Position numbers and translations under genes: made by a program. The notes below the pieces were generated by a model. That model had not been told where the DNA came from. It saw only the letters and a program-made list of their open reading frames with translations, and made no database searches. A stretch of DNA of 43,339 bases, taken from NCBI RefSeq assembly GCF_003334315.1, contig NZ_QOWR01000042.1. The stretch is one strand, 5' to 3'. Below, in pieces: positions 183 through 6,453 of the stretch. Position 1 is the first letter of the stretch, and the number at the start of each line of letters is the position of its first letter. Source of the DNA: Escherichia coli (GTDB taxonomy: Bacteria > Pseudomonadota > Gammaproteobacteria > Enterobacterales > Enterobacteriaceae).

Positions 183-1196
183 TTATTTGTTGTTGCGCAG
201 ATCCAGCGCCACGTCAACGATCATATCCTCCTGGCCGCCAACCATCCGGCGTTTGCCCAGCTCAACGAGAATATCCACCGCACTTAAGCCATAACGCGCC
301 GCCGCCGTTTCACAGTGACGCAGGAAGCTCGAGTAAACACCAGCGTATCCCAGCGCCAGCGTTTCGCGATCGACTCGTACCGGTCGATCCTGCAACGGAC
401 GCACCAGGTCGTCGGCGGCATCCATTAACGCATAGAGATCGGTCCCATGCTGCCAGCCCAGTTTATCCGCGGCGGCAATAAACACTTCCAGCGGTGCGTT
501 ACCTGCGCCCGCGCCCATTCCCGCGAGGCTGGCGTCGATTCGGTCGCAGCCCTCTTCCACCGCCGCGATAGAGTTCGCCACGCCAAGACTCAGGTTATGG
601 TGAGCGTGCATGCCAGTTTGCGTTTCTGGTTTCAGCTCTGCTTTCAGGGCGCGGAAACGGTCACGGATATCGCTCATGTTCATCGCACCGCCAGAATCCA
701 CCACATAAATACAGGTCGCACCGTAGCCTTCCATCAGCTTTGCCTGCTTGGCGAGATTCTCCGGCGTGGTCATATGGCTCATCATCAGAAAACCAACGGT
801 GTCCATTCCGAGCTCGCGGGCATACTGAATATGCTGGGCGGAAACATCAGCTTCGGTACAGTGCGTTGCCACACGAACCACCCGCGCGCCAGCCTGCCAG
901 GCATTTTTCAGATCGTGAATAGTGCCGATTCCTGGCAGCAACAACGTCGCGATTTTGGCGTGCTTCACCACATCCGCCGCCGCTTCAATCCATTCAAGGT
1001 CGCTATGTGCGCCGAAACCATAGTTAAAGCTGGAACCTTGCAAACCGTCGCCGTGGGCCACTTCAATCGAATCCACGCGGGCATCGTCCAGTGCTTTGGC
1101 AATCTGGCGAACGTTTTCCAGCGAATACTGATGACGAATGGCGTGCATACCGTCACGCAATGTGACGTCCGAGATATAAAGTTTTTTACCGTTCAT
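183..1196 (-). CDS. mhpE: 4-hydroxy-2-oxovalerate aldolase
   Basis: 337-aa ORF with an HMGL-like aldolase sequence, last gene of the mhp cluster; 4-bp overlap with the upstream ORF. Confidence 0.9.
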
Positions 1197-2143
1197 GCCG
1201 CTTCTCCTGCCTTGCGCGCCAGTGACTGGGCCATTTTTTCCGCTGTCGCCAGCGCACTGGAAGTCATAATGTCGAGGTTGCCCGCATAGGCAGGCAGATA
1301 ATGCGCTGCGCCTTCGACTTCCAGCCAGACCGCTGTTTTCAGTCCGGAGAATTGCCCCACGCCCGGTAAATTGACCGGTTTATCCTGCGGGATAACTTCA
1401 AACTGCACGCGCTGTTTCAGGCGATAACCCGGTACGTAAGCCTGCACCGCCTCAGCCATTTCATTGATTGAGGCTTCGATATCATCTTGTGAAGCTTCGT
1501 CGCTCAATACATACACCGTGTCACGCATCATCAACGGTGGCTCTGCTGGGTTAAGCACAATAATCGCCTTCCCTTTTGCCGCGCCGCCCACCACTTCAAT
1601 GGCTCGGGAAGTGGTTTCCGTAAATTCATCGATATTGGCACGCGTGCCAGGTCCGGCAGATTTACTGGCGATAGAAGCGATAATTTCGGCGTAATGAACA
1701 CGCGCCACGCGTGAAACTGCCGCCACCATTGGAATGGTGGCCTGGCCGCCGCAGGTGACCATGTTGACGTTCAGTTGATCGACGTTCGCCTCGAGGTTAA
1801 CCACCGGCACGCAGTAAGGGCCGATGGCAGCAGGCGTCAGGTCAATTAAGCGAATATCCGGTTTCGCTTCGCGTAAAGCGGCATCGTTTTTCACATGCGC
1901 GCCCGCGCTGGTCGCATCAAATACAATGTCGATATCAGCAAATTCAGGCATGTTCATCAGCCCGATCACCCCTTCATGGGTGGTGGCGACGCCCATACGT
2001 CTGGCACGCGCCAGACCGTCGGACTGAGGATCAATGCCGACCATCACCGCCATCTCCAGATGCTGACCGTGACGCAAAATTTTAATCATCAGATCGGTGC
2101 CAATGTTGCCAGAACCGATAATGGCGACTTTACGCTTACTCAT
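1193..2143 (-). CDS. mhpF: acetaldehyde dehydrogenase (acylating)
   Basis: 316-aa ORF with N-terminal NAD-binding motif [11 protein letters not shown]; overlaps mhpE and mhpD stop/start by 4 bp. Confidence 0.9.
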
Positions 2144-2949
2144 GACAGACTTCCTTTTGGGGCTGCGCTTGAAAATGTCGCAGCAACTGAACCTATGCCT
2201 TCAATATGGGCTTCAAAACGATCGCCCGCATTCACTGCCACCATCGGACCTAATGCCCCGGTAAGAATGATATCTCCGGCGCGCAGCGGTTCACCCAGGC
2301 TGGCCATTTTGCGTGCCAGCCAGACGGCGGCATTAAGCGGATGTCCCAGGCATTCGCTGCCGCGCCCGCTGGAAACCTCTTCGTTATTACGCGTCATCTT
2401 CATGGCGCAGTTTTTCAGGTCTAACCCCGCCGGACGTTGCGCCGGACCGCCGATGACATACACCCCACAGGAGGCGTTATCTGCCACGGTATCGACAAAC
2501 TGAATCGACCAGTCGCAAATGCGGCTACCCACCACCTCCAGCGCAGGAAGTACCCATTCAATGGCGTTATACAGTTCGTCGAAGGTGATATCAGTTGCGG
2601 GTAAATCGCGGTTCAACACCAGTGCAATCTCCGCTTCAATGCGGGGTTGCAGAACGCGGGAAAAAGGAATGGTTTCGTTATCGCCATAACACATATCGGC
2701 AAATAACGTCCCAAAATCCGGTTGATCAACGCCCAGTTGTTGTTGCACTTTCGGATGCGTCAGGCCCACTTTACGCCCTACCACGCGACGCCCCTGCGCA
2801 ACGTCATATTGCACATTTATGTGCTGAATGGCGTAGGCCGCTTCAGCGTTATCGATACCAATCAGATCGCGCAGCGGCGCAATCGCTTCGCCCTGCTCTG
2901 CGGCGCGGCGTAAATCCGCCGCCAGTTGCTCAAGAGTATGCTTCGTCAT
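2140..2949 (-). CDS. mhpD: 2-keto-4-pentenoate hydratase
   Basis: 269-aa ORF, hydratase/decarboxylase family, in conserved mhp gene order. Confidence 0.9.
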
Positions 2950-2958
2950 GACCGTTCC

Positions 2959-3825: not shown

Positions 3826-3842
3826 CATCTTCTCCTGCATAT

Positions 3843-4787
3843 TCAGTTCTCTGTTCTGGCGCTTAACGAGCCAAATCCGGCAATCCACTCCGGGATTGGG
3901 CGGTAATAACGCCCTTCGCTACGCCAGTTGCCAAATGCAGAAATAGCGGCAAAAGCGGCGACCCAGGTTTTGATTTCATGTGTCGACTTTCCGGCAATGG
4001 CGGAAAGCTCTTCGTTACTGACGGCATCCAGTTCCTGTATGCGTCCCTGCTCCAGCAAAGTCATGAACTGGTTATCCCAAATCGGGTTGAGCGGATGCAG
4101 AGTTCTCTGATCCTCAACAAACTTCTCAGCGGCGCTAATCACCCGTTGCTGACGCAATTCGCGCTCACTGGCGGGTAAATCTTTCCCGCTCCCCAACAGA
4201 CGGTCGCGCATATGGGCATCGGCTTTCGCCAGTTCGGGCACCGGCGGCTGATGGGAAAGCCCACCGGAACCCAGGAACAGCACGCGTTTATTGAGAGTGC
4301 TGGTGAAACGTCCAATGGCTTCACCCAACATGCGGGTACGCTGGAAACCGGGCAGCGGCGTGGCGACACCGTTGATGAACACAGGCAGAACTGGCACCTT
4401 ATCCAGCCCACCGAGCAGGAACTCCAGCGGCTGGGCGAACCCGTGGTCCACCTGCATACAGTAAGAAACGGCAAGATCGATCCCGCTCTTCATGACGGCA
4501 TGCGCACAGGCCTCCGCCAGCTCCACAGGCACGGGCAGCTCTCCTGCCGCACTGCCGAAATCACCAATTGCCGTCGCTCCAACGCCTAAACAGAACGGTG
4601 GCATCACGTCATAGAAAAAGCCGTTGTAGTGATCTGGCGCAAACAGCACCACCAGTTCAGGGGAGAATGCCGCAATACGCTCGCGGGCGCTGGCAATCAC
4701 GCCATTGACCTCATCGAGCACCTCTTGCGCCGGGTCGACATACCCCACCAGCGGCGAGTGGGAAAGACAGTGAAGATAAGCGTGCAT
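3843..4787 (-). CDS. mhpB: 3-(2,3-dihydroxyphenyl)propionate 1,2-dioxygenase (extradiol)
   Basis: 314-aa ORF, LigB-type extradiol dioxygenase, conserved position between mhpA and mhpC. Confidence 0.9.
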
Positions 4788-4788
4788 A

Positions 4789-6453
4789 TCAGGCTACCTT
4801 TTCGACAGAAACGTCGGCATCAGGGCGGGTCAGCGTCATCACCGACGCCAGTTTATTCAGGGTCTTGCCCAGGGTTTGCGGAATGGCGGTGGCGGCAACA
4901 AAGCGATCCGGGCGCATCACCACCAGCGAAGCATTGTGTTGCGCGAACCAGCTACGCAGGCGACCTTGCGTATCGCCCACGCGTAGTACGCCGTCGTGGT
5001 TATCCTGTGCGGTATGAATTTGCACTTCCGGCACCACCTGAATGAAGCGTGTGCCCAACGCGCGCCACTGCTGGATTTGCTCGTCGCTCATCCCCCACAG
5101 TGGATTGCATCCCCAGCCAATTACCGCGAAGTTCGCGCCGATCGCGTTATCGAGCAGCGTCACGTCGCCGTTTTCCAGCGTGACTTTCGGCTGAATAAAC
5201 ATCTTGCCGACCGGAGAGTGCTTCGCTTCGCCCTCACGCATCAGCGCACCGCCGTAATATTGCGGCATCGGCTTGAAGCGCATTTCGAGGAAGTAGCGTT
5301 TTACTGGCGGCAGATAATTCAACAGCCAGGAAACGCCGTCACGTAACGTACCCTGCCAGCGTTTCGGCGGAGCCAGCACGTTGCCCGCCGTCACGGACAG
5401 GTCAATCATCGCTTTGGCGTGATCGCGACGTTCTTGTTGATAGGTATCGAGCAGCGCATCGCGGGCTTTCCCCTGGATAACCAACGCCAGTTTCCATGCG
5501 AGGTTAAAGGCGTCGCGCATACCACTGTTATAGCCCTGCCCCTGCCACACCGGCATGATGTGCGCGGCATCGCCCGCCAGCAGTACGCGATCAATACGGA
5601 AACGTTGCGCCAGTCGCGCGTTGTGGGTGTAGACACGCTGGCGAATCAATTCAACATTGTCCGGATTAGGCAGCACTTTGCTTAACAGCTTGCGCATATT
5701 TTGCGGCTCACGCAGCTGTTCTTCGGTTTCTCCTGGCATCACCATAAATTCAAAGCGACGTACCGCATGAGGTAGCGCGGCAGAAACATACGGGCGCACC
5801 GGATCGCAACACAAATAGATATGCGGCGTACTTAACGGATCGTTGGCGATATCTACCACAATCCACTGATTTGGCGCAGTTTTACCTTCAAACGGCACAT
5901 TCAGGGTGCGACGGACAAAACTTGCCCCACCATCACAGGCCACCAGCCACTGGGCTTTGACTATTTCCCGCTGCCCTTCTGCCGTTTTCAGGTGCAAGGT
6001 CACTTCGTCATCTTGCTGACTGAAGGCCTCCAGCTCGCGGGAAAACAAGCAGCGCACATTCGGAAAACGCGACACCCCTTCCAGCATCACCGCATCGACC
6101 TGCGGCTGAATAAAGGCGTTACGGCGCGGCCAGCCAAATTCATCGGTCATTGGCTGAATATCAGCAAAACAGCGGCCTTTCGGGGTGAGAAAACGCATCG
6201 CGTGCCACGGCGTAGTGTGCGGCAGAACATCATCGACCAGGCCGACCGACTGCATGGTGCGCAGCGCCTCGTCATCAATACCAATCGCACGCGGGTAGTC
6301 GATCAACTTATCGAGTTTCTCCACCACCAGCACGTCAATGCCCATCTGGCCGAGATAGTTCGCCATCATCAGCCCAACCGGGCCGGCACCAGCGATCGCC
6401 ACCTGAACGCTATGGTTAACAGCAGGCTGGATGTCAGGGTGTTGTATTGCCAT
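4789..6453 (-). CDS. mhpA: 3-(3-hydroxyphenyl)propionate hydroxylase (FAD monooxygenase)
   Basis: 554-aa ORF with N-terminal FAD-binding [14 protein letters not shown]; first gene of the mhp operon. Confidence 0.9.

Follow-up and report, generated by a model that had tools for sequence, protein, structure and literature searches.

The 43,339-nucleotide stretch of Escherichia coli DNA analysed here (the window) carries near its beginning, between positions 183 and 6453 on the minus strand, the mhpABCDFE operon for the breakdown of 3-hydroxyphenylpropionate. Our subject is the manner in which the six cistrons of this operon abut and, at two junctions, overlap each other. The first 9000 nucleotides (nt) of the window are 100% identical to sequenced E. 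coli chromosomes, in whose annotation one strand carries mhpE, mhpF, mhpD, mhpC, mhpB and mhpA and the opposite strand mhpR, lacI and lacZ; the remainder of the window consists of the usual lac-cyn-cod-prp-yah surroundings. Gene coordinates were derived from open reading frames and the RefSeq annotation, and the junctions were measured by script directly on the sequence. All six mhp enzymes and the regulator MhpR score above the curated NCBIfam cut-offs of their families.

The first gene of the operon, mhpA (4789-6453), encodes a 3-(3-hydroxyphenyl)propionate hydroxylase of 554 amino acids (NCBIfam NF004827, 1288 bits for a cut-off of 966). Then follow mhpB (3843-4787), which encodes an extradiol dioxygenase of 314 amino acids, mhpC (2959-3825), which encodes a C-C hydrolase of 288 amino acids with the RefSeq start, and mhpD (2140-2949), which encodes a 2-keto-4-pentenoate hydratase of 269 amino acids. 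The last two genes are mhpF (1193-2143), for an acetylating acetaldehyde dehydrogenase of 316 amino acids (TIGR03215 equivalog, 471.5 bits for a cut-off of 282.25), and mhpE (183-1196), for a 4-hydroxy-2-oxovalerate aldolase (TIGR03217 equivalog, 601 bits for a cut-off of 286). Coupled pairs belong to one strand and one transcript: all six genes are on the minus strand, as the initial annotation of this DNA had proposed, and the transcription unit is named mhpABCDFE in the literature, where the operon, its regulator and the binding site were described by the Diaz and Garcia groups.

The same annotation had described 4-bp ATGA overlaps between mhpE and mhpF and between mhpF and mhpD, along with gaps of under 20 bp between mhpD and mhpC and between mhpA and mhpB. 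Inspection of the start and stop codons proved every one of these numbers right. The mhpD/mhpF overlap (-4 nt) occupies positions 2140-2143 of the minus strand, with the mhpF ATG at 2143-2141 and the mhpD stop codon TGA at 2142-2140, and the mhpF/mhpE overlap (-4 nt) occupies positions 1193-1196 of the same strand, with the mhpE ATG at 1196-1194 and the mhpF stop codon TGA at 1195-1193. The mhpC/mhpD junction measures +9 nt (mhpC stop TAA at 2961-2959, mhpD ATG at 2949) and the mhpA/mhpB junction +1 nt, in the arrangement TGAtATG (4791-4785; mhpA stop TGA at 4791-4789, mhpB ATG at 4787). The mhpB/mhpC junction had been left out of the initial description and is also short, at +17 nt with the RefSeq start (mhpB stop at 3845-3843, mhpC ATG at 3825). 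Where proximity of stop and start codons is taken as a mark of coupling (an overlap, or about -8 to +10 nt), the D/F, F/E, A/B and C/D junctions are close enough; the B/C junction (+17) falls in the range that the authors of this measure call variable.

The ATG codons at 2143 (mhpF) and 1196 (mhpE) are the earliest starts past the upstream in-frame stop, and the alignments of MhpF and MhpE with the solved structures of DmpF and DmpG begin at residue 3. Downstream starts that would remove the overlaps were considered and rejected: the next ATG codons (codon 19 of mhpF and codon 17 of mhpE) would delete the GSGNIG nucleotide-binding loop and the conserved DVTLRDG segment, respectively. No plausible alternative start abolishing either overlap was thus found, both genes beginning at the first possible ATG with a Shine-Dalgarno (SD) sequence 6-7 nt upstream. 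The start of mhpC is ambiguous. Three in-frame ATG codons at 3840, 3828 and 3825 lie within 16 nt (MQEKMMSYQ...) and give an mhpB-mhpC spacer of 2, 14 or 17 nt, respectively. RefSeq takes the third, for which the SD sequence AGGAG is best spaced; the crystallised MhpC constructs begin with MMSYQ (1u2e, ATG 3828) or MSYQ (9ijk, ATG 3825), which does not settle the native start.

A duplex scan with the 3' end of 16S rRNA located an SD sequence before every mhp cistron. At the two overlaps, these sequences lie inside the preceding gene on the minus strand: an SD-like AAGGAAG in the 3' end of mhpD (2150-2156), 6 nt before the mhpF ATG, with a duplex energy of -5.6 kcal/mol and a mean predicted probability of being unpaired of 0.52, and AGGAG in the 3' end of mhpF (1204-1208), 7 nt before the mhpE ATG, with values of -7.5 kcal/mol and 0.53. 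The SD sequence of mhpD, AAGGAA, overlaps the mhpC stop codon. In folding calculations, the opening energy of the six ribosome-binding regions ranged from 5.3 to 10.6 kcal/mol, against a mean of 13.7 kcal/mol for internal controls of the same mRNA. The values for mhpF and mhpE were 6.8 and 9.9 kcal/mol, and the overlap junctions fell in the lowest 4-15% of the internal controls. Masking of the mhpF and mhpE ribosome-binding sites by RNA structure, as a cause of obligatory coupling, finds no support in these low opening energies or in 125-nt constructs, in which no helix covers the SD sequence or the AUG.

The products of the last two genes are closely related to the DmpFG enzyme. MhpE is 83% identical to DmpG (1nvm_A) and MhpF is 79% identical to DmpF (1nvm_B), in ungapped alignments of 331 and 307 residues. 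Seven out of seven inspected positions are identical in these alignments, namely R17, D18, H21, H200, H202 and Y291 of DmpG and C132 of DmpF, which we take to be catalytic or gating residues. In four sets of PDB structures (1NVM, 8IH7, 4LRS/4LRT and 4JN6), a single entry contains homologues of both enzymes, the aldolase as chain A and the dehydrogenase as chain B, and the channelling of acetaldehyde from DmpG to DmpF is described in PMC6241538. By orthology, the expectation that MhpE and MhpF would form a channelling complex is well founded, and from it we infer a physical complex of the two proteins in E. coli. The initial annotation had voiced this expectation and had called the tight spacing consistent with stoichiometric production of the two enzymes; worded with such caution, the statement finds support in the orthology with DmpFG, in the co-deposited homologues and in the conservation of gene order and spacing.

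This conservation was assessed by searching plasmid records with MhpE and choosing matches for taxonomic spread, which yielded 22 loci besides the window. Fourteen junctions (the window and 13 loci) were checked base by base, and seven later loci were compared by their annotated coordinates only. In 21 of the 21 intact loci (window included), the aldolase gene is immediately preceded by the dehydrogenase gene, at distances from -4 to +23 nt, in Proteobacteria, Actinomycetota, Bacillota and Deinococcota. The junction itself takes several forms. Nine of the 21 loci display a -4 overlap (ATGA or GTGA), those of E. coli, Klebsiella, Rhizorhabdus, Sphingopyxis, Pseudosulfitobacter, three Streptomyces and Thermus, and the overlap is of 1 nt in two others, from Vibrio parahaemolyticus and Sinorhizobium. 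A spacer of 8-23 nt separates the genes in the other ten (pCAR1, NAH7, Ralstonia, Caballeronia, Acinetobacter, Achromobacter, Variovorax, Hydrogenophaga, Vibrio nigripulchritudo and Priestia); an SD sequence stands at or beside the stop codon in the six spacer-type loci read base by base. The gene preceding the dehydrogenase gene is variable and encodes a hydratase, a decarboxylase, a tautomerase, a regulator or a RidA-family protein. A published survey reports a median distance of +1.85 nt for the gene pair COG4569-COG0119 (quartiles -3.4 and 14, n=276) and a median of +12.9 nt for MhpD followed by MhpF. Taken together, the 21 loci and the published survey indicate that order and closeness are conserved, the overlap being only one of two common designs.

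Two loci of this sample deserve separate mention. On plasmid pRHL2 of Rhodococcus jostii RHA1 (L011, 1094-4005), an IS5-family transposase separates the aldolase gene from a shortened dehydrogenase gene, the only sampled locus with the pair split. A Streptomyces atratus plasmid (L024, 2459-5514) carries a distant pair, whose aldolase is 39% identical to MhpE, followed by genes for a ketoacyl-ACP (acyl carrier protein) synthase III, an acyl carrier protein and a CoA ester lyase with 4-nt overlaps. This context suggests that the pair is used outside aromatic catabolism.

Within E. coli, the spacing of the mhp genes is ordinary as a form and not beyond chance. Among co-directional E. coli genes, -4 is the commonest spacing; 707 of 2,987 pairs lie at -8 to +6 nt and a further 203 at +9 to +12 nt. 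The median of the mhp junctions was +1 nt, against +36 nt for 12 other operon-like junctions of the window (lac, cyn, cod, prp and yah), a difference with a one-sided Mann-Whitney p of 0.017 in a small sample. In E. coli K-12, the mhpABCDFE genes (b0347-b0352) and the divergent mhpR have the same order, lengths and junctions (+1, +17, +9, -4 and -4 nt) as in the window, and the K-12 junctions mhpC-D (+9), mhpD-F (-4) and mhpF-E (-4) are tabulated in the supplement of Huber et al. 2023 (PMC10666635). Over 6.6 kb, 48 substitutions distinguish the K-12 strain MG1655 from the window, of which one falls in the mhpC-mhpD spacer (2954) and none in the start and stop codons of the junctions; MhpC of the window differs from the K-12 crystal sequence at three residues.

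Across the species, the two overlap junctions are all but invariant. A 43-mer spanning the F/E overlap was present in 4,739 of 5,426 complete E. coli genomes and identical in 4,676 of 4,744 records, and the 43-mer of the D/F overlap was present in 4,895 of the 5,426 genomes and identical in 4,805 of 4,900 records. About 10-13% of complete E. coli genomes are without a match to a junction 43-mer, and the mhp operon is absent or divergent in this sizeable minority.

Upstream of mhpA, the plus-strand gene mhpR (6644-7477) encodes an IclR-family activator of 277 amino acids, recognised as an MhpR equivalog (NF007341, 343 bits for a cut-off of 269). The initial annotation had the operon read from a promoter facing this divergent gene with a palindromic operator. 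Both the divergent mhpR and the palindrome are borne out. The 190-bp spacer between mhpA (6453) and mhpR (6644) contains a perfect 8-1-8 palindrome of 17 bp, TGTGCACC-T-GGTGCACA (6595-6611), which agrees at 16 of 17 positions with the MhpR site of Torres et al. 2003, GGTGCACCTGGTGCACA, in the form listed in PMC8222616. Two corrections are nevertheless needed, as the palindrome lies outside the 183-6453 interval given for the observation, and as MhpR, according to the literature and the K-12 annotation, activates transcription and binds more readily in the presence of the aromatic substrates, so that 'operator' should not be taken to mean a repressor site. The G that K-12 and the published site have at position 6611 is replaced by T in this strain, and this one base turns a 7-of-8 inverted repeat into the perfect palindrome.

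A scan of positions 1-6700 detected no consensus sigma-70 promoter, as expected for an activator-dependent promoter. A possible weak mhpA promoter, TTGTAG and TATACT separated by 16 nt (6551-6578, minus strand), is suggested by the sequence at a level below the threshold of the scanning tool, and would place the centre of the palindrome near -59. The mhp promoter is reportedly dependent on CRP; no CRP-like site TGTGA-N6-TCACA was found with up to 3 mismatches within 5861-7159, which includes the mhpA-mhpR spacer.

At the other end of the operon, the 577-nt mhpE-mhpT spacer contains hairpins of the repetitive extragenic palindrome/bacterial interspersed mosaic element (REP/BIME) type downstream of mhpE (3-134; Rfam RF02564 at 3-80, inverted repeats at 4-33 and 105-134), which are likely the 3' boundary of the mhpABCDFE transcript. 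Terminator signals inside the operon were not above chance (9 found for 7.5 expected, one of them on the minus strand), and an Rfam scan of the window returned only REP-derived naRNA4 matches, none of them within the operon. Further REP/BIME elements (naRNA4, RF02564) are found at 20298-20468, 25243-25314 and 35000-35441, the last comprising six tandem copies. The mhpE gene terminates in three in-frame stop codons in series, TAA-TGA-TGA (177-185, minus strand). Positions 43136-43158, some 200 nt before the window ends and in or near pdeL, match the terminal inverted repeat of IS1 with 1 mismatch. A related strain used for annotation carries an IS1 inside allH/yahE (L017, 39913-40610), a place where no IS1 end occurs in the window.

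The explanation that we favour, and hold to be probable, is that the operon is co-transcribed as a series of packed cistrons, that ribosomes reinitiate at the ATGA overlaps and that the succession of mhpF and mhpE matches the output of these two genes for a complex of the DmpFG type. A single mRNA for mhpABCDFE would be made from the MhpR-activated promoter, and with spacings of +1, +17, +9, -4 and -4 nt a ribosome would end each cistron at or beside the next start. At the two ATGA overlaps, termination-reinitiation would be the most likely mode of initiation, aided by the SD sequences inside the 3' ends of mhpD and mhpF, and independent (de novo) initiation would probably contribute as well. 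The junction between mhpF and mhpE would be the functionally meaningful one, its products being closely orthologous to DmpF and DmpG, which form a heteromer traversed by an acetaldehyde channel. Synthesis of the dehydrogenase first and of the aldolase straight after, on the same mRNA, would favour matched amounts and assembly in cis. Reinitiation, which we infer, like the degree of coupling and the stoichiometry, from the established anatomy, orthology and conserved order and spacing, very probably occurs at the ATGA sites, and the models of the RNA make a partial rather than obligatory coupling likely.

Published work on E. coli offers a frame for this explanation. Coupling was reported for four out of five native pairs with a 4-nt overlap (three of them strong, menDH at about 60%) and was absent in bioBF; a 4-nt overlap is therefore no guarantee of coupling in this species. 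Coupling is also reported to fall steeply with distance, and pairs at short distance to be 4.5-fold enriched for subunits of heteromers. In the published cases, strict coupling was accompanied by a predicted helix over the initiation region, blocking de novo initiation, and E. coli cases without such a helix displayed de novo initiation with little or no coupling (bioBF).

Several observations weigh against the explanation in its strong form. For both mhpF and mhpE, folding of the 125-nt constructs leaves the SD sequence and the AUG about 50-70% unpaired, with structure not stronger than the average of the construct; with good SD sequences in weakly structured RNA at both overlaps, coupling may well be partial. 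The mhpD/mhpF junction has a like overlap though MhpD is not known in a complex, so that an overlap alone does not mark a complex, and -4 is the mode of spacing in the whole E. coli genome. Nor is an overlap required for a complex, as 10 of the 21 homologous loci, including NAH7 and pCAR1, use spacers of 8-23 nt.

Another reading refines our explanation without excluding it, and we regard it as plausible while stopping short of calling it probable. Coupling would serve assembly and folding more than a 1:1 amount: the dehydrogenase would capture the nascent aldolase in cis and keep it soluble, gene order would be under selection, and spacing would be secondary. DmpG, BphI and HsaF are said to need their partner dehydrogenase for stability or solubility. 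The strict succession of dehydrogenase and aldolase genes across five phyla, despite spacing classes of -4, -1 and +8 to +23 nt, argues for this reading, as does the proposal of Huber et al. 2023 that co-translational complex formation is a benefit of overlaps.

Extended to all phyla sampled, the idea is equally tentative: the selected feature may be the order of dehydrogenase and aldolase on one mRNA, for the capture of nascent aldolase in cis, with two interchangeable designs of the junction. The first, an overlap of 4 nt or 1 nt relying on reinitiation, would be that of E. coli, Klebsiella, sphingomonads, Streptomyces and Thermus; the second, a spacer of 8-23 nt with an SD sequence beside the stop codon and de novo initiation, would be that of Pseudomonas, Burkholderiales, Acinetobacter and Priestia. 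If this is true, coupling at the overlap in E. coli would be no more than partial, and stoichiometry would not require the overlap.

It is rather unlikely, in our estimation, that the overlaps are a mere by-product of operon compaction, with mhpF and mhpE initiated mainly independently at their own SD sequences and the complex formed by diffusion. Such an origin would suit the commonness of the -4 spacing in E. coli, the SD sequence before every mhp cistron in comparatively open RNA, the uncoupled bioBF pair with its 4-nt overlap and unstructured initiation region, the ten homologous loci without overlap, and the mhpD/F overlap without a known complex. It fits poorly, however, with an order and adjacency of dehydrogenase and aldolase genes that are invariant in 21 of 21 loci while the other neighbours are shuffled, at spacings that never exceed 23 nt and have a published median of +1.85 nt. 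The enrichment of heteromer subunits at short distances also speaks against it, as does the coupled expression announced in the title of Lee et al. 2006.

That the overlaps arose through faulty annotation, with mhpF and/or mhpE truly starting further downstream, is highly improbable: the ambiguous start of mhpC with its three in-frame ATG codons and a TTG at codon 13 of mhpE lend it some colour, but ATG 2143 and ATG 1196 are the first starts after an in-frame stop and have SD sequences at 6-7 nt, the downstream candidates have none and would remove residues aligned to DmpF and DmpG from position 3, and the ATGA/GTGA geometry recurs in eight other loci.

The close packing of the mhp genes has little significance beyond correct annotation. 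Earlier publications already cover the mhp operon, the MhpR site and the coupled expression of MhpF and MhpE, and the arrangement is real and ordinary. In PMC10044804, mhpE appears solely as a deletion end-point. The supplement of PMC10666635 curates the E. coli mhpF-mhpE pair (-4) as 'CMPLX not', and its table of COG pairs flags MhpD-MhpF as a complex by shared gene name and MhpF-LeuA(aldolase) as none. Given the co-crystallised homologues, both labels look wrong by our analysis, and the thesis that overlaps are a mark of complex subunits would have in mhpF-mhpE a positive case that was overlooked. With an order invariant in the sampled loci and a junction that switches between overlap and short spacer, the pair lends itself well to a natural test of whether assembly depends on gene order or on overlap.

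The termination-reinitiation pairs hyfHI, astDB, ydbH-ynbE and menDH (Huber et al. 2019, 2023) share with the mhp pairs an ATGA overlap and an SD sequence inside the upstream gene, and often encode subunits of heteromers. The strictly coupled published pairs have a stable predicted helix at the initiation region, whereas none is predicted at mhpD/F and mhpF/E, which on these models seem nearer to menDH, with its partial coupling, or to bioBF, which is uncoupled. In the Pseudomonas-type loci NAH7 and pCAR1, an 8-11 nt spacer with an SD sequence beside the stop codon takes the place of the ATGA overlap of E. coli mhpFE. A further close counterpart is DmpFG of Pseudomonas sp. CF600 (PDB 1NVM), in which the genes of the aldolase and of the acetylating dehydrogenase are adjacent and the dehydrogenase comes first, as in MhpFE.

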